Shown: piece by piece, positions 834 through 26,844 of the stretch | How positions within the stretch are numbered: the stretch's first letter is position 1 | Layout of the letters: each line of letters starts with the position of its first letter | Source of the DNA: Staphylothermus hellenicus DSM 12710 | GTDB taxonomy: Archaea > Thermoproteota > Thermoprotei_A > Sulfolobales > Desulfurococcaceae | Length of the DNA: 32,000 nucleotides | Assembly: GCF_000092465.1 (NCBI RefSeq) | Contig: NC_014205.1 | Coordinates: 1,440,001-1,472,000 of the forward strand | Direction of reading: 5' to 3' | Made by a program: the position numbers and the translations under genes | The notes under the pieces: model-generated | Seen by the model: the letters and a program-made list of their open reading frames with translations, nothing else | What the model was told of the DNA's origin: nothing | Databases searched by the model: none

Positions 834-1277
834 ATGTTGGACCAAGTTCTCAACGGTGTATTGCTTATGAAGATAAGGGAGATCGTGAAAGTTGATTCTA
901 AGGGTAGAATAACTATACCCCTAACAATACGTGAAGCCCTAGATATAAGAGAGAGAATGACTGTTCTATTAATAGCTGATAAAGAAAGGAAAGAAATAAT
1001 AGTTTCTCCAATACCTGAAAGAGCAAAACTTATAGAGTTAACGATTAGAGTAGAGGATCGGCCGGGTGTATTAGCTGAGCTTACAAGAGAACTAGCTAAT
1101 AAAGGAATAGATATCATAGCGACAAAATGCATAGTGTTGAAACGAGGAGAAATGGGAGAATGCTATATGGTAGTCGACTTATCCCGCTCACTAATAACTA
1201 ACCTGAGAGAATTAGAGGAAGCACTGCAAAAGCTGGAACCGGTAAGAGAAGCAAGAGCACAAGAAATACATAGCTAA
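834..1277 (+). CDS. AbrB/SpoVT-type DNA-binding domain fused to an ACT domain
   Basis: KVDSKGRITIPLTIREALDI is a typical AbrB/SpoVT motif. IELTIRVEDRPGVLAELTRELANKGIDI is a typical ACT-domain start. A TATA-like run TTTTTATATATAAAA lies ~30 nt upstream. Alternative start ATG at 867. Confidence 0.65.
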   Translation: MLDQVLNGVLLMKIREIVKVDSKGRITIPLTIREALDIRERMTVLLIADKERKEIIVSPIPERAKLIELTIRVEDRPGVLAELTRELANKGIDIIATKCIVLKRGEMGECYMVVDLSRSLITNLRELEEALQKLEPVREARAQEIHS

Positions 1278-1319
1278 CATTTTAAACAATAAATTCAACT
1301 AGTAGGGGGCCAGTAATCT

Positions 1320-2096
1320 TTGGGTAAAATAGTGAAGATAGGCTGCTGCGGATTCCCTGTCTCTAGGAGAAAATACTATGTAATACATCGATTAGTAGAG
1401 CTGCAAAAAACATTTTATAATCTACCAAGTAGGAAATGGGCCGAGAAAATCAGGGCTGAAGCCCCTCGAGAATTCGAGTTCACAGTTAAAGCATGGCAAG
1501 TAATAACTCATCCACATAGAAGCCCTACATGGAGAAAACTCCAAAACAAACCAGCCGGTAATATTGAAAACTATGGATGGCTTAAACCTACAAATGAAAA
1601 TATTGAAGCATTAACGAAAACATTGGAGATAGCAGATGTTCTAGGAGCTAAAATCATAGTTTTACAAACACCTGGATCAATGCCTTACAGTGAAGAATCA
1701 AAGAAATGGGTATATGAATTCTTTGATAAAGCAGGAGAAACTGTTTCTAACAATTATTTGCTTGGATGGGAACCGAGGGGTGAGTGGGCTAAGCATATAA
1801 GTGAGTATAGGGAGATCCTCCGCGAACACCGCATAATACATGTTGTCGACCCCTTTAGATACGAATCTGTAAGCATAGTTGATGGGATCGCGTATTATAG
1901 GTTACACGGGATAGGAGGGGGCGAAGTAAATTATAGGTATAAGTATAGTGTTGAAGACCTAGAGAAACTAGCATCAATATTGGAAAAAACAGTTTTTGAA
2001 ACAGCATATGTATTATTCAACAACGTATATATGCTAGATGATTCTAGGAAGTTCAAGGAAATACTGAGAAAACACCCCAGCTTAACGCCTGTGTAA
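1320..2096 (+). CDS. DUF72 (UPF0759) family protein
   Basis: 258-aa ORF with TTG start. N-terminal IGCCGF and C-terminal YYRLHG motifs and the length fit DUF72 as I remember it. Confidence 0.6.
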   Translation: MGKIVKIGCCGFPVSRRKYYVIHRLVELQKTFYNLPSRKWAEKIRAEAPREFEFTVKAWQVITHPHRSPTWRKLQNKPAGNIENYGWLKPTNENIEALTKTLEIADVLGAKIIVLQTPGSMPYSEESKKWVYEFFDKAGETVSNNYLLGWEPRGEWAKHISEYREILREHRIIHVVDPFRYESVSIVDGIAYYRLHGIGGGEVNYRYKYSVEDLEKLASILEKTVFETAYVLFNNVYMLDDSRKFKEILRKHPSLTPV

Positions 2097-2175
2097 AATA
2101 TAATTGTTTAAATACTTGAAACCAGTAAATCCGAATATATGTAGAAAACATATTTGGAGAAGATGGTGGTAATAG

Positions 2176-2664
2176 TTGAAGCTCGGAATAATAGATGAGA
2201 TATTGTTAGCAATACTAGTAGCTGGAATAGTTTTAGCACTATTCTATCTAGCACTACCACCAAACATACAAACTGGAACACTCCAATTAGAAGATGAAAT
2301 ACCTGGAACAGGCTGGAAACTAGTAGACTTATCGCCCACAGCTGGAAAAGCCTCTTTCAAAAACACAATAATGAACTATGAATACACAACATTTGTTGGT
2401 AGAAGATTCTATGCAATAACAATTGATCAAATCAAGGGATCCACTGTTAAATACAGTGTTGACATGAAATTCTACAAAAACATCTACATATATGCAGCAG
2501 CACATCTATTACTAGGAATAGGCATAGTGTTAAGCATAATAGTATTTATGCTGAGAATAGATAGGCTCAAAGAAAAACTATTAAGCCCAACACTACTAAT
2601 AACAACTGCATACATAATCATAGGACTACCACTAATATACGCACTAGTATTATCGATCTCATAA
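2176..2664 (+). CDS. hypothetical membrane protein
   Basis: 162-aa ORF with TTG start. One N-terminal and two C-terminal hydrophobic helices flank a ~70-aa soluble segment. No recognisable family. Confidence 0.4.
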   Translation: MKLGIIDEILLAILVAGIVLALFYLALPPNIQTGTLQLEDEIPGTGWKLVDLSPTAGKASFKNTIMNYEYTTFVGRRFYAITIDQIKGSTVKYSVDMKFYKNIYIYAAAHLLLGIGIVLSIIVFMLRIDRLKEKLLSPTLLITTAYIIIGLPLIYALVLSIS

Positions 2665-2734
2665 ACAATTTTTACCCTCCCCTCTCTTCTCTTAATAATT
2701 TTATTTAACAACCTGGTTCTCAAAACTATAAACC

Positions 2735-3066
2735 ATTGAGAACCGGGGAGTTCCACCCCAACGGATCAAATCGATCAAGCAAAAATCCCCCTCTATAAAA
2801 GCTAAACACAGAACTCGGAAGGGGCTAAACATGTATGGGTTCAATATCTGGGTGTGAACCCCCCGGTTTCCACCCAATAAATAAAAATCAGAACGGATGG
2901 GGGGCTAAAGACATGGTATCCGGTTCTTGTGCATATGAAACCCCCCGGTTCCTCTGTATGATTTCGCCTCCAGGATCCAGGGGCTCGTCGAGGCGAAATC
3001 ATAGAGGCTAACCCCCCGGTTATCCAATAGAACCATCTAATAGAAAACGACCAAGCCCCCTCCAAA
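2735..3066. repeat. Left block of GC-rich repeat family (four copies, mixed orientation) built around AACC-N4-GGTT cores
   Basis: Cores at 2741-2752 (AACCGGGGAGTT), 2857-2868, 2939-2950 and 3010-3021 (each AACCCCCCGGTT). Shared flanks are CGAAATCATA(C)AGAGG upstream and a C/G-string (CCCCCTC or its complement) 35-50 nt downstream. GC-rich against the AT-rich background. Confidence 0.7.
2951..3007. repeat. Long imperfect inverted repeat (hairpin/cruciform-capable) formed by two head-to-head repeat copies
   Basis: CCTCTGTATGATTTCGCCTC (2951-2970) pairs with GAGGCGAAATCATAGAGG (2990-3007) with one bulged base. The loop is 19 nt, CAGGATCCAGGGGCTCGTC. Confidence 0.8.
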
Positions 3067-3088
3067 GACCATGTTATCAATATAAAGA

Positions 3089-3115
3089 CCCCCACCCCTT
3101 GATTTCCTGTGGAGA
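3089..3115 (-). promoter_or_regulatory. ORB-like (origin recognition box) element, left
   Basis: Minus strand reads CTCCACAGGAAATCAAGGGGTGGGGG. This gives a TCCA..GGAAA dyad segment, a short spacer and a G-string, which is the layout of Orc1/Cdc6-binding ORBs recalled from Aeropyrum, Sulfolobus and Pyrococcus origins. Confidence 0.5.
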
Positions 3116-3274
3116 AAACAGCATTGGTTAATTAATGAAACTATATGGTTAGAAAACTAGCTATTTATATATGAAATTAGTTTTTAATTTTATGGTTTAA
3201 ATATATGGATCTCATTATACAAACCAATATATGTTCTCGATAATAAATAATTAGTAAGTATTATTTCCTAATTT
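3116..3274. other. AT-rich core (candidate duplex unwinding element)
   Basis: ~160 bp between the two inverted ORB-like boxes. My hand count gives roughly 20% G+C, well below the flanking sequence. No ORF. Confidence 0.5.
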
Positions 3275-3303
3275 GTTCCATATGAAATAGAGGGGGGAGG
3301 GGG
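3275..3303 (+). promoter_or_regulatory. ORB-like (origin recognition box) element, right
   Basis: Plus strand reads GTTCCATATGAAATAGAGGGGGGAGGGGG. It aligns with the reverse complement of 3089-3115 (TCCA, GAAAT, G-string). The two are inverted, with G-strings pointing away from the AT-rich core. Confidence 0.5.
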
Positions 3304-3323
3304 TTTATAAAGGGGTTTATAAA
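3299..3323 (+). promoter_or_regulatory. Tandem duplicated TATA-box module (GGGGTTTATAAA x2)
   Basis: TTTATAAA at 3304-3311 and 3316-3323, each preceded by GGGG. The first repeat copy of the right block starts ~10-25 nt downstream (3331). Confidence 0.4.
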
Positions 3324-3330
3324 GGCCTCT

Positions 3331-3518
3331 TCGAGGCGAAGCCATAGAGAGGAACCGGGGAGTTATCACTTTTCCATTGAAAACGAACACGCCGCAACCC
3401 CCCTCTCCATGGATCAGGCTCGTTGAAATGCCTGGTGGGTCCAGTCGAAATCATACAGAGGAACCGGGGGGTTCACACCCAATGCTTAACCAAAAACACC
3501 ACCAACACCCCCCTCCAC
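3331..3518 (+). repeat. Right block of the same GC-rich repeat family (two tandem copies, + orientation)
   Basis: Cores at 3353-3364 (AACCGGGGAGTT) and 3462-3473 (AACCGGGGGGTT). Segment 3446-3473 is the exact reverse complement of 2939-2966 (28 nt). Both copies end in CCCCCCTC(T)CC. Copy 1 contains the palindrome TTTTCCATTGAAAA (3370-3383). Confidence 0.7.
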
Positions 3519-3572
3519 CATAAAACAAAGAACCAAACCATTATACGAGGTCATACAAAAACAATAAAGAAT

Positions 3573-3926
3573 GGGGAGAGGGGGCGGGCCAGCTGCTCAC
3601 GCCCCCTCCTCTTGGAGGGGGTGAGGAAACTCCGCACACCCCGCGGCTCCACGGCCCCGAAATGGGGCGCGGCGAGCAGCCGCGGCTCCGGCACAGAAAC
3701 GACACGGCCACCGCTCAGATGGCGATGAGGCGGCGAGGGGTCCCCGGCAACGGGGGCTCAGCAACCCGCTGAGGACGGCGGTGGATGCGTTGAAACGGCC
3801 GGTCCCGTGGGGTGCAAGGCCCCCTGTATTATTTGAGGGGGATGAGGTTGGCCGCGCAACCCCTGTGGGGGCCGCATAGTCTAATGCAGCTAGTACAGAA
3901 TGCGGGTTATGGCCTGCCCCTCTCCT
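3573..3926 (+). ncRNA. rnpB: RNase P RNA (archaeal type A)
   Basis: GC-rich island. CR-I-like UGAGGAAACUCCG follows a P3-like hairpin GCCCCCUCCUCUUGGAGGGGG. CR-V-like GUACAGAAUGCGGGUUAUGG lies near the 3' end. P1 pairs GGAGAGGGGGCGGGCC (3575-3590) with GGCCUGCCCCUCUCC (3911-3925). P2 pairs AGCUGC with GCAGCU. P4 pairs CUCCGCA with UGCGGG. A T-run (TTTATTTTTT) follows immediately. Ends are good to about +/-5 nt. Confidence 0.88.
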
Positions 3927-4328
3927 TTATTTTTTGAGTCCTTGCCTCTTCAGTATATAGTATACTGTTGATGTTGGTAATCCTAGTTGTTTGCTTATCT
4001 TATATATGCTCATTTTTCTCCTATACATTTTAACTATTTTCTTTATGATTGCTTTCTTTTTCCTCTTATGTGTTGGCATTTTTTGTTTTTCTGTTTTCCT
4101 TAATGGTATATTGTATTTTCTCAGTATTTCGTAGAGGAGGGCTAAGTATATTTTGTGTTTCTTAACTATCTCCTTCACGGGTAATCCTTTCCTGTAATCA
4201 TTTATTATTTCCTCTATTTTCTCCTTGCTTAGATCCTCTATGTTCAAGGCATCAACACCTGCTAGGATTGTTTTCATAAATATATTATTTCTTTTCATAC
4301 TTATAAATAGATAATTGATAGTTAGCAT
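3927..4328 (-). CDS. small DNA-binding protein with two tandem HTH (resolvase/homeodomain-like) motifs
   Basis: Two internal repeats: GLPVKEIVKKHKIYLALLYEILRKYNI and MSIYKISKQLGLPTSTVYYILKRQGL. Lies downstream of tsr3, overlapping it by 7 nt if the start is 4328. Alternative starts at 4298 and 4277. The stop codon abuts the RNase P RNA 3' end. Confidence 0.5.
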   Translation of the reverse strand: MLTINYLFISMKRNNIFMKTILAGVDALNIEDLSKEKIEEIINDYRKGLPVKEIVKKHKIYLALLYEILRKYNIPLRKTEKQKMPTHKRKKKAIIKKIVKMYRRKMSIYKISKQLGLPTSTVYYILKRQGLKK

Positions 4329-4858
4329 GGAGGTTTTTCTCCCCAGTAATCCTTTATTGTTTCTAATAATTTATTAATTGATTTTGTTCTACGATATGCT
4401 TCTAATACTTCACTGTTTAATGTATGAAATGTTTTCATCCACTTGTATAGTCCAAGTAGTTTCCTATATGCTTCAATAAAACCTGTTATATATAGTGTTG
4501 CAGCTGCTGCTTCAATACTTGATAATATACATGGTTTACCATAGTTTATCGGATTACCTGGTAGGAGGGGTGGGAGCCTTCTATGTCGCCCCTTGATCAT
4601 AGAGGTTTTTCTAGGAACCAGTTTTTTCCAGCTAGCATCAACAACTACTACACCATATTTCTCCACATATACGCTATCCCATGGCCCCAAATACTTGTTG
4701 CTGTAGGGGTCAAGTATTATCGGTGAACCATGTATTCTACGTGGAAATACATGTATGGCTAGGTTTTTACGGATCATTTTTAAAGCAGTATTCTTACGGG
4801 GATCGTCTTCTCGATAATAAATAACCATTATCCTGGGCAAACGCTTCTGCTGAGCCAA
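4322..4858 (-). CDS. tsr3: 16S rRNA aminocarboxypropyltransferase Tsr3
   Basis: 178 aa. DDPRKNTA, ILDP, VVVDASW, HRRLPPLLPGNPINYGKP and LSSIEAAAATLYI match the conserved blocks of archaeal Tsr3 (DUF367). Confidence 0.8.
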   Translation of the reverse strand: MAQQKRLPRIMVIYYREDDPRKNTALKMIRKNLAIHVFPRRIHGSPIILDPYSNKYLGPWDSVYVEKYGVVVVDASWKKLVPRKTSMIKGRHRRLPPLLPGNPINYGKPCILSSIEAAAATLYITGFIEAYRKLLGLYKWMKTFHTLNSEVLEAYRRTKSINKLLETIKDYWGEKPPC

Positions 4859-4956
4859 GACTTATTCATACCTACAACTATACTATGAGCTAAACAATTA
4901 TAATCCATAAAGACCCCAAAATATATATTGGACACAGTAGGTGATAGGTGGTTTAA

Positions 4957-5211
4957 TTGGCTAAAGCTGGAGCAATAGTCCTTATCCAAACAGATATTGG
5001 CGCGGAATCACGTGTTATGGAGGAACTCGTTAAAGTACCTGAGATCACGGAGGCATACATAGTTTATGGAATATACGATATAATAGTTAAGATCGAGGCT
5101 GAAAGCCTCGAGAAGATAAGAGAAGTAATAACCAACAGGATCAGGAAGCTCCCAGATATTAGGACGACTAGTACAATGGTTATTGTTGAGGAGAGAATTA
5201 AGAAGCAGTAA
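4957..5211 (+). CDS. stand-alone Lrp/AsnC ligand-binding (RAM) domain protein
   Basis: 84 aa, TTG start. Beta-alpha-beta-beta-alpha-beta pattern with EVxEAYIVYGxYDIIVKIEA, typical of AsnC-type RAM domains. No HTH. Confidence 0.7.
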   Translation: MAKAGAIVLIQTDIGAESRVMEELVKVPEITEAYIVYGIYDIIVKIEAESLEKIREVITNRIRKLPDIRTTSTMVIVEERIKKQ

Positions 5212-5232
5212 TTAGGATTATAATGTATTAGC

Positions 5233-6129
5233 TTAACTATTCTTTTTCTCATCACCCACAATATTTTCATAGCCACTATCTTCTTTCTTAACAATTATTC
5301 TCAGCGGCGACCTAAACCATACATCGTTTTGCGGGAACGGTATCTCTATGCCTGCATCAGTTATTGCTTTCTTAATCCTCCAAACAATCTCCTTTTTCAC
5401 ATTATACCATTCACTACTTGGAACCCATACTCTAACTCTTATATTTACACTACTATCCCCTAGTTCTTCAACAAAAACATCTGGCTCCGGCTTAGCCAGT
5501 ATGAATGGGTGCTTGGATAGTTCGTTCCTAATAATCCGGTATGCTTTCTCAGCATCCTCACTATAAGCTATTCCGACAAGGAATTCTAGTCTTCTAGCAG
5601 GTGTTGCTCCAATGTTTTTAATAACTGAGTTGAATACATCATTATTCGGTATTCTTATTAATACGCCGTCTAAACCCCTGATCTTAGTGGACATTATTGA
5701 TATGTCCTCAACAATTCCCAGCTGCCCATTAACATCTACGAAATCACCTGGTTTCAAAGGCCTCTCCCAATAGAGGAATATCCCTGATACTAGGTTTGCT
5801 GTTATACTTTGCAGTGCGAAGCCAAGTATTATGCCTAGGAATCCACCAGCTATTACTAGTCCTGTAAGGTTTATTCCTAGAATACTTAGTGCTGATACTG
5901 CGAATATAGTTACTAGTGTATAATAGATTATTCGTGCAAGATTATAAGCTATTGTTTGAGGCATAAATCTTATTGATACCCTATATGTTATTTTCTTAGC
6001 AATTATTGAGATGAATAAGCCTACACCCAATATTATTGTTGCAGACAATATTCCTAGCCAATCTATATTCTCTAACCATGTGAAGCCTGATGTAAGATTT
6101 AACTGGTCACTCAACCCTATATCCCCCAC
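5233..6129 (-). CDS. small-conductance mechanosensitive channel (MscS family)
   Basis: Three N-terminal TM helices followed by the MscS beta-domain signature PGDFVDVNGQLGIVEDISIMSTKIRGLDGVLIRIPNNDVFNSVIKN. Confidence 0.85.
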   Translation of the reverse strand: MGDIGLSDQLNLTSGFTWLENIDWLGILSATIILGVGLFISIIAKKITYRVSIRFMPQTIAYNLARIIYYTLVTIFAVSALSILGINLTGLVIAGGFLGIILGFALQSITANLVSGIFLYWERPLKPGDFVDVNGQLGIVEDISIMSTKIRGLDGVLIRIPNNDVFNSVIKNIGATPARRLEFLVGIAYSEDAEKAYRIIRNELSKHPFILAKPEPDVFVEELGDSSVNIRVRVWVPSSEWYNVKKEIVWRIKKAITDAGIEIPFPQNDVWFRSPLRIIVKKEDSGYENIVGDEKKNS

Positions 6130-6923: not shown

Positions 6924-7039
<116 letters not shown>

Positions 7040-7301: not shown

Positions 7302-8324
7302 GTGAGGGTTAGAAATAAAGTGAAAACAGTGTTTTTAGCTTGGGGTAGAATTGGTAGAAGAACTGTTGAGTTATCTAGGGAGCTAGGCTCCTACTTATTA
7401 TTTATACCTGATAAACCCCCATATTTGAAAGCATATTTTAAAACAATAAAGTTCTTATCAAGATTTCAGCCTAAAACGGTAATTCTCCAATTGCCGCAGG
7501 GGCCGTTATTATTTAGTTCTATTATGCATAGGAAAAAACATCATTATAATGTTGTAGCAGATGTTCATACAGGTTTCTCCATATATGATTCTTGGAAAAG
7601 CCTTATTCTTAATAAACCATTTCATTGTTTTCTCAAATACTGCGAACTAGTTATAGCACATAATGATCCTTTCCGAGAATACCTAGTTAAAACTAAAGGG
7701 TTAGATCCTGAGAGAGTGGTCACCGTATATGATCCCTTCCCTAAAATCCCTGAAAACCCTAGAAAACCCATTAATATAGATGTTGAACCATTCAAATACA
7801 TTGTTTTCCCAGCAGCATGGGATCCCGATGAAAACCTGGAGTTCATTGTTAGGGAATACTTATCTTCAACCGCTAGTAGAACCTATAAGTTATTGTTAAC
7901 AGGTAATTATAATAGAAGGAAGAGATTAGCTGAGAAAATAAGGAGAAGTAGCGATAAAATAGTTTTAACAGGCTATGTAGGGAATAGAGAATACTACTGG
8001 ATCTTAAAATATTCAAAACTAGTAGTTACAGGGACCACTAGAGAATACACAATGCTCTCAAGTATATGGGAATCCCTCGCACTCGAGAAACCATTTATTA
8101 CGAGCTATACATATACACTTGGCAAGATCCTGGGTAAGAACACATTATACTACACCTATAAGGAGGGTTCTCTTAGGAAACTATTAGATACATGTTTGAA
8201 TAATAATGCCTGCCTAGTTTATCTGCGGAAAAGAATAACTACATTAAAAGAAAATATGAAAACATTATCTAGGAACAGCATAGAAAAGCTGAGGATAATA
8301 ATAAATAGACTCAACGAGCTGTGA
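7302..8324 (+). CDS. putative glycosyltransferase (GT-B-like, divergent)
   Basis: 340 aa, GTG start, first gene of the glycan cluster. Two-lobe layout and a degenerate acidic motif (WESLALEKP) in the C-terminal half. Weak family evidence. Confidence 0.4.
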   Translation: MRVRNKVKTVFLAWGRIGRRTVELSRELGSYLLFIPDKPPYLKAYFKTIKFLSRFQPKTVILQLPQGPLLFSSIMHRKKHHYNVVADVHTGFSIYDSWKSLILNKPFHCFLKYCELVIAHNDPFREYLVKTKGLDPERVVTVYDPFPKIPENPRKPINIDVEPFKYIVFPAAWDPDENLEFIVREYLSSTASRTYKLLLTGNYNRRKRLAEKIRRSSDKIVLTGYVGNREYYWILKYSKLVVTGTTREYTMLSSIWESLALEKPFITSYTYTLGKILGKNTLYYTYKEGSLRKLLDTCLNNNACLVYLRKRITTLKENMKTLSRNSIEKLRIIINRLNEL

Positions 8325-26747: not shown

Positions 26748-26844
26748 GGGCCCGTAGCCTAGCCTGGATAGGGCGCCGGCCTGCGGAGAATAGCGGGGGT
26801 TCGTGGCTAGCCGGAGGTCCCGGGTTCAAATCCCGGCGGGCCCG
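26748..26844 (+). tRNA. tRNA-Arg(GCG) with 22-nt intron at 37/38, no encoded CCA
   Basis: GGGCCCG/TA/GCCT-AGCCTGGATA-GGGC/G/CCGGC-CTGCGG[intron]A-GCCGG/AGGTC/CCGGG-TTCAAAT-CCCGG/CGGGCCC-G. Confidence 0.9.

Follow-up and report, generated by a model that had tools for sequence, protein, structure and literature searches.

A probable oriC1-type replication origin beside the RNase P RNA gene of Staphylothermus hellenicus

The described replication origins closest to the one treated here are oriC1 of Sulfolobus (Saccharolobus), for which Robinson et al. 2004 is reportedly the source, and oriC1 of Aeropyrum pernix, for which Grainge et al. 2006 and Robinson and Bell 2007 are said to be the sources, with 2V1U reportedly the structure of ORC1 on the box ORB4. 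Aeropyrum pernix belongs to the same order, the Desulfurococcales, as Staphylothermus hellenicus. The present analysis concerns a 32-kb stretch of the chromosome of S. hellenicus DSM 12710 (the window, with position 1 being its first nucleotide). The segment at 2741-3473 is, judging by its sequence, very probably a chromosomal replication origin of the oriC1 type and a homologue of oriC1. A literature search found no description of a Staphylothermus origin.

The Sulfolobus oriC1 is dependent on the initiator Orc1-1 (PMC3607249; PMC12141716). It requires three elements, the origin recognition boxes (ORBs) ORB2 and ORB3 and an 11-bp motif, ucm, located midway in the unwinding element, and mutation of the two S. 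islandicus ORBs abolishes the origin (PMC12141716). The nucleoid protein UBP binds ucm and also contacts MCM (Dhanaraju et al. 2025, PMC12141716). The ubp gene is reported to occur in the Desulfurococcales and Sulfolobales and to be restricted to them, and the same paper describes ucm as conserved in the Sulfolobales and at both A. pernix origins (PMC12141716). In the oriC1 of A. pernix several ORBs surround an AT-rich region, which melts when ORC1 binds (PMC8287685). According to a review, neither of the A. pernix cdc6 genes is next to its origins (PMC5333045). The published ORB consensus is GTTCCAGTGGAAAC-AAA----GGGGG, and haloarchaeal ORBs have lineage-specific extended G-strings (PMC1868953). 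The euryarchaeal origins (Pyrococcus, Haloferax) share with the locus described here the logic of a mini-ORB dyad and a G-string (PMC1868953), but they adjoin cdc6/orc1 and have no ucm.

The core of the S. hellenicus locus consists of two inverted ORBs, ORB-L and ORB-R, which enclose an AT-rich segment and have double G-strings directed away from it. The minus strand of 3089-3115 reads TCTCCACAGGAAATCAAGGGGTGGGGG and the plus strand of 3276-3303 reads TTCCATATGAAATAGAGGGGGGAGGGGG. An earlier interpretation made from the letters of the window (the sequence-only reading) had proposed an Orc1/Cdc6-type origin with inverted ORBs, G-strings outward, around an AT-rich unwinding element. The arrangement was confirmed by the sequence and by a pattern search, and the proposed type is supported by the fit of the ORBs, by ucm and by the conserved position. 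Its right-hand box is present as quoted; its left-hand box, given as 3089-3115, is present with a one-base offset, the quoted 26-mer being 3089-3114. The pattern TCCA-N3-GAAA-N4-GGGG, with at most one mismatch, is found at only two sites in the 32 kb, ORB-L and ORB-R, both with no mismatch. The expected number of matches is 0.14, and two were reached in one of 100 shuffles. The ORB pair is an exact and non-random pattern, not a product of chance. Both S. islandicus ORBs match the same search pattern; ORB-L and ORB-R are compatible with these experimentally validated boxes (TCCAATGGAACCGAAGGGG and TCCAAATGAAATACTGGGG) and with the consensus given above. ORB-R is kept in a close relative (locus L083). 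The ORB4 of A. pernix, which we take to read CTCCACAGGAAACGGAGGGGT, would be nearly identical to ORB-L.

The segment between the boxes (3116-3275) has 20.6% G+C compared with 37.3% for the window, and no gene is called in it in L001, an independent assembly of the same sequence that reaches 9 kb upstream of the window. The earlier description of 3116-3274 as non-coding with about 20% G+C was therefore accurate. The most AT-rich 100-mer of the window (3166-3265, 17% G+C) lies inside this segment, and the most AT-rich 160-mer overlaps it. The least stable 100-mer is also in the core, with a nearest-neighbour energy of -102.5 kcal/mol, where the mean is -125.2 (sd 7.8). The third origin element, as recognised from its sequence, is ucm, which the sequence-only reading overlooked. 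The sole exact copy of CATTATACAAA in the window is the one inside the AT-rich core. The motif is identical to the S. acidocaldarius ucm oligonucleotide, ATTATACAAACT, across ATTATACAAAC and to the S. islandicus ucm, ATTATACAAAAG, across ATTATACAAA. In the comparison of relatives it stood out as a conserved motif, TCATTATACAAACC, within the core. A small open reading frame (ORF) at 5718-6083 of L001, taken as a candidate for a nearby UBP gene, had no match in the PDB.

The core of the S. islandicus oriC1, represented by oligonucleotide P23, and that of the window have the same layout, an ORB on the minus strand, ucm on the plus strand and an ORB on the plus strand. In Sulfolobus as in S. hellenicus, an AT-rich duplex unwinding element (DUE) that holds ucm lies between inverted ORBs whose G-strings point outward. 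The DUE of the window is longer, with a box-to-box gap of 163 bp as opposed to 96 bp in S. islandicus. Sulfolobus has a single extra box, ORB1, whereas S. hellenicus has five long ORB-like repeats, with degenerate dyads and a 12-bp module, AACYSSSSRGTT, and in addition a sixth AACYSSSSRGTT that has no dyad. Two further differences are that the S. hellenicus orc1-1 gene is not adjacent to the origin and that the RNase P RNA gene is its immediate neighbour. With the A. pernix oriC1 the locus shares multiple ORBs around an AT-rich region and, to the extent that the sources cited above describe them, initiator genes that are not beside the origins and the presence of ucm. A. pernix has four canonical ORBs, while S. 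hellenicus has two and the degenerate long repeats.

The conservation of the module was examined in 80 loci from species-representative genomes (1.28 Mb), which were fetched with an alignment of Tsr3, the product of a gene downstream of the origin. A relaxed ORB pattern has 91 matches in these loci, 84 of which are within 4 kb of Tsr3. The density is 0.14 per kb near Tsr3 and 0.010 per kb elsewhere, a 14-fold enrichment; shuffles of all 80 loci gave 1.9 matches in total. At least one ORB is present within 4 kb of Tsr3 in 38 loci, about 20 have two inverted ORBs separated by 71-300 bp of low-GC DNA, and TTATACAAAC occurs inside or beside ORB pairs in about 45 related loci. In L083, whose Tsr3 is 88% identical, nearly every element of 2856-3580 is conserved. 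The origin–Tsr3 linkage is not absolute: an ORB module lies 6-9 kb from Tsr3 in L029 (16221-16521; ORB, ucm and 12-mer) and in L049 (813-977; an inverted ORB pair only).

A direct connection to the Sulfolobales is provided by Acidianus hospitalis (L072), in which an ORB, ORB, ucm, ORB module at about 7560-7735 is found immediately upstream of the gene for a Cdc6-1 orthologue, with 563 bits to 2qby_A versus 202 bits to Cdc6-3. This locus is the canonical Sulfolobales oriC1. Its order is cdc6-1, ORB-ORB-ucm-ORB, tRNA, TiaS, AsnC and Tsr3, and the module is 2.3 kb from the Tsr3/AsnC pair, which also flanks the origin of the window, where the order is origin, RNase P RNA, HTH (helix-turn-helix) gene, Tsr3 and AsnC. 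The window retains the Tsr3/AsnC pair but not cdc6, and its origin is the positional homologue of one that adjoins cdc6-1. On the sequences compared, the ORB–ucm–ORB module is conserved in position across the Desulfurococcales and Sulfolobales.

Some observations weigh against an origin at this site. There is no orc1/cdc6 gene from about 12 kb upstream to about 29 kb downstream of it, the local minimum of the strand skew (7179) is about 4 kb away and confounded by gene orientation, and the flanking genes are not co-oriented with forks leaving the site. The cumulative GC skew over 41 kb (the window and L001) follows a V: the curve falls to about 800, is flat to about 10,800 and rises from there on, and its broad minimum, at about 0.8-10.8 kb, spans the locus. 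The AT skew peaks at 3775. Such a course is suggestive of a polarity switch nearby and compatible with an origin here, and is too local to decide the matter.

The absence of an initiator gene nearby, noted already in the sequence-only reading, was upheld by all searches. No Orc1/Cdc6 Pfam domain was found in window ORFs of at least 110 aa, tblastn of a Cdc6-1 protein against the window gave no match, and the 9 kb upstream of the window in L001 contain no cdc6. In the Desulfurococcaceae loci cdc6-1 is beside the ORBs in none, and within 10 kb only in L032, about 9 kb away. An adjacent initiator gene is typical of archaeal origins, not universal, and it does not define the family, because the validated A. 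pernix origins are also without one (PMC5333045). The 'orphan' layout is real but not new. The S. hellenicus Orc1-1 orthologue (P0141, assigned by its NCBI species name) is encoded outside the locus. Its scores are 420 bits against Sso Cdc6-1, 416 against A. pernix ORC1 in the ORB-bound structure 2v1u and only 89 against A. pernix ORC2. In a Staphylothermus metagenome-assembled genome (L085) the neighbour of orc1-1 is the RNA polymerase operon, and no ORB, ucm or 12-mer lies less than 10 kb from the gene. From the missing initiator gene the sequence-only reading had concluded that the origin is secondary or of non-canonical arrangement. No evidence for either was found, and the conclusion does not hold because in position and in sequence the locus is homologous to oriC1, which is widely conserved, and an unlinked initiator is already known in A. 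pernix.

The origin extends well beyond its core. The 12-mer AACYSSSSRGTT, a pseudo-palindrome with a central G-run or C-run in either orientation, has six copies in the window, all of them within 2741-3473 (Table 1), where 0.02 are expected. An alignment of 64 copies places it after the ORB G-string, at a distance of 1-3 bp in relatives and directly abutting a degenerate G-string in S. hellenicus. The resulting 'long ORB' is about 34 nt in length and has the form TCCAGTGGAAAyCATAGGGGTGn-AACYSSSSRGTT. In relatives the 12-mer clusters at the same origins and the repeats there carry canonical ORB dyads, and in Acidianus ORB1 is followed by a 12-mer-related sequence. The element is conserved in Desulfurococcaceae origins. 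The dyads of the outer elements of S. hellenicus are degenerate (TCGAGGCGAA, TGGAGGCGAA), and neither of the core ORBs carries the 12-mer. The degenerate long repeats were not detected by the ORB weight matrix, which is partly circular since it was trained on strict ORB matches, and were revealed by repeat analysis and the 12-mer.

The extent given earlier, 3089-3303, holds for the core boxes and is too narrow for the origin, which spans about 2741-3473. The five long ORB-like elements and the sixth, dyad-less 12-mer copy had been missed. The weaker ORB-like boxes named there, 2807-2826 and 3370-3387, are not supported, since both fall below the threshold with the ORB weight matrix. The second of these is conserved in L083, but it lacks a G-string and the spacing of its dyad falls one base short.

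Table 1. Coordinates of the elements of the origin region and of its flanking genes, in positions of the window
Feature	Position	Strand	Repeats	Remarks
ORB-L, canonical origin recognition box	3089-3116	-		weight-matrix score 35.4, top of the window
DUE, AT-rich	3117-3276	.		about 21% G+C; most AT-rich and least stable 100-160 bp
ucm motif, CATTATACAAAC	3213-3224	+		inside the DUE; presumed site for a putative UBP orthologue
ORB-R, canonical origin recognition box, TCCATATGAAATAGAGGGGGGAGGGGG	3277-3303	+		score 25.9; inverted relative to ORB-L
Tandem pair GGGGTTTATAAA x2	3300-3323	.	D10	abuts ORB-R on its outer side; palindrome TTTATAAA in each unit; perfect, 100% conserved in L083
Long ORB-like repeat, TCGAGGCGAAGCCATAGAGAGG + AACCGGGGAGTT	3331-3364	+	D1, I1	degenerate dyad, G-string, then 12-bp pseudo-palindrome; identical in L083
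Long ORB-like repeat, TCCAGTCGAAATCATACAGAGG + AACCGGGGGGTT	3440-3473	+	D1, I2, I4	
Long ORB-like repeat, TCGAGGCGAAATCATAGAGGCT + AACCCCCCGGTT	2988-3021	+	D1	12-mer in C-run orientation; nearly identical in L083
Long ORB-like repeat, TGGAGGCGAAATCATACAGAGG + AACCGGGGGGTT	2939-2972	-	I1, I2	97% complementary to the 3443-3473 copy
Palindromic 12-mer copy, TGGGTGTG AACCCCCCGGTT TCCACCC	2849-2880	.	I4, D2	G-string-like arms; no recognisable dyad
Long ORB-like repeat, TCGATTTGATCCGTTGGGGTGG + AACTCCCCGGTT	2741-2776	-	D5, I5	outermost and most degenerate; our own reading; L083 coverage stops short of it
12-mer copies	2741-2752, 2857-2868, 2939-2950, 3010-3021, 3353-3364, 3462-3473			window occurrences confined to the origin region
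162-aa ORF, three hydrophobic segments	2176-2664			left flank of the non-coding gap
RNase P RNA gene	3580-3921			Rfam, 162 bits; right flank of the non-coding gap
Small homeodomain-like/transposase-type HTH protein (HTH_23/HTH_28)	3927-4328	-		between RNase P RNA and Tsr3
Tsr3 gene	4322-4858			

The literature consulted on archaeal origins contains no description of the 12-mer. It is possible, though we consider it rather unlikely, that the 12-mer is an origin element in its own right that has not been described before. It could then be the predicted site of a second factor, for instance a dimeric protein or the Orc1-2 paralogue, that forms a composite site with Orc1-1, and such a composite could parallel the Cdc6-1/Cdc6-3 pair at the Sulfolobus oriC2.

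Other repeats accompany the long ORBs. The TATA-like TTTATAAA in the tandem next to ORB-R could represent a promoter pair or another protein site. A family of direct repeats, (A)AAACGAnCAnGCC...CCCCCTC(T)CC, is found at 3033-3066, 3372-3410 and 2768-2794, with a weaker copy at 3490-3516. Its members (repeats D3 and D7) are on the plus strand, follow the 12-mers, and occur on both sides of the core in direct and not inverted orientation. Two of the inverted long repeats, at 2961-3001, have the potential to form a hairpin with an 11-bp stem (GATTTCGCCTC...GAGGCGAAATC). L083 has GAAACC in three repeat copies where the window has GAAATC, which from the sequences looks like a concerted change of the repeats rather than evidence of RNA structure.

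The proposed mode of action of the origin, including protein binding, MCM loading and firing in vivo, follows by analogy from published work on homologues. Orc1-1 monomers, supplied by the gene elsewhere in the genome, would bind the inverted ORB-L and ORB-R with fixed polarity, with the winged-helix domain on the TCCA..GAAA dyad and the initiator-specific motif of the AAA+ domain on the G-string. Each bound Orc1-1 would then recruit an MCM hexamer onto the 160-bp AT-rich element. A putative UBP-like nucleoid protein bound at ucm, between the hexamers, may assist the exit of the helicase. The flanking long ORB-like repeats with the AACYSSSSRGTT module are probably auxiliary protein sites, which would accommodate either more Orc1-1 or a second factor.

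The module might alternatively be a conserved but dormant or relic origin, or its Orc1 and UBP sites might be reused for chromosome organisation or for regulation of RNase P RNA or a neighbouring gene, with replication starting elsewhere. Dormant origins do occur in archaea, Haloferax mediterranei being an example (PMC4595724), and UBP binds more than 300 non-origin sites in Sulfolobus. The unlinked initiator gene would agree with dormancy or reuse, as would the RNase P RNA gene, which abuts the origin in all eight Desulfurococcaceae loci checked (L003, L006, L008, L010, L012, L021, L058 and L083), on either side and in either orientation. We nevertheless regard dormancy or reuse as improbable, because the two ORBs and ucm, all of which are needed for function of the S. 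islandicus oriC1, are intact and conserved across the Desulfurococcales and Sulfolobales. The near-complete conservation in L083 speaks for selection that still acts on the entire module, and oriC1 has been described as the most widely conserved archaeal origin (PMC12141716).

The many inverted and direct repeats of 30-44 nt, the potential hairpin and the small transposase-like HTH gene nearby could be taken for remains of a mobile element (a miniature inverted-repeat transposable element or an insertion-sequence scar) or for a cluster of small noncoding RNAs or hairpins, the likeness to ORBs being coincidental. This is very unlikely, because the repeats keep one conserved chromosomal position in dozens of species and are not dispersed, the motifs do not recur elsewhere in the window, as the confinement of the 12-mer to the origin region illustrates, and no Rfam family matches 2600-3600 at E <0.49. 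The canonical ORB dyads in the repeats of relatives also speak against it. A noncoding RNA cluster was discarded because 2600-3600, compared with Rfam at permissive settings, yielded nothing beyond a chance-level match to mtPerm-5S (E 0.49).

A purely transcriptional role, in which the G-rich boxes and TATA-like TTTATAAA would serve RNase P RNA or the flanking genes as promoter or regulatory sequence, is hardly credible. The location directly upstream of RNase P RNA, the linkage in eight of eight loci and the two TTTATAAA palindromes at 3304-3323 would agree with such a role. Against it, the ORB–ucm–ORB core stays the same where RNase P RNA changes side and orientation, the same core is beside cdc6-1 in Acidianus without RNase P RNA, and a multi-repeat region of 900 bp far exceeds the needs of an archaeal promoter.

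The origin is located in a non-coding gap of about 915 bp (2665-3579), and no gene was called in L001 between 2664 and 3927 of the window. The neighbours named in the sequence-only reading, a membrane protein and RNase P RNA, agree with the three hydrophobic segments of the ORF on the left and with the Rfam match on the right. The HTH gene is present also in the closest relatives, L083 and L084, and absent where Tsr3 directly abuts the origin (e.g. L003 and L058). Relative to RNase P RNA, the Tsr3 block has the opposite orientation to that in L058, which points to a local rearrangement. On the other side, 4-9 kb upstream of the origin, L001 carries a reverse gyrase gene between two Alba genes (1212-4874, 922-1215 and 5034-5330) as well as an XPB-like helicase, so that genes for chromatin and DNA topology are grouped near oriC. 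Farther into the window, two tRNA matches of Rfam, at 6927-7039 (minus strand, 113 nt) and 26748-26844 (plus strand, 97 nt), were missed by ARAGORN and are probably intron-containing archaeal tRNA genes.

These results give the location of what is probably the main replication origin of S. hellenicus and, by extension, of the origin in many uncultured Desulfurococcaceae, in which a neighbouring orc1/cdc6 gene is not available as the usual cue. The ORB–ucm–ORB core, established by genetics in Sulfolobus, keeps its sequence and its place on the chromosome in both orders, and a search near Tsr3 and RNase P RNA is therefore a practical finder of oriC1 in these genomes. The separation of the origin from the initiator gene, known from A. 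pernix, is on these data widespread rather than exceptional.

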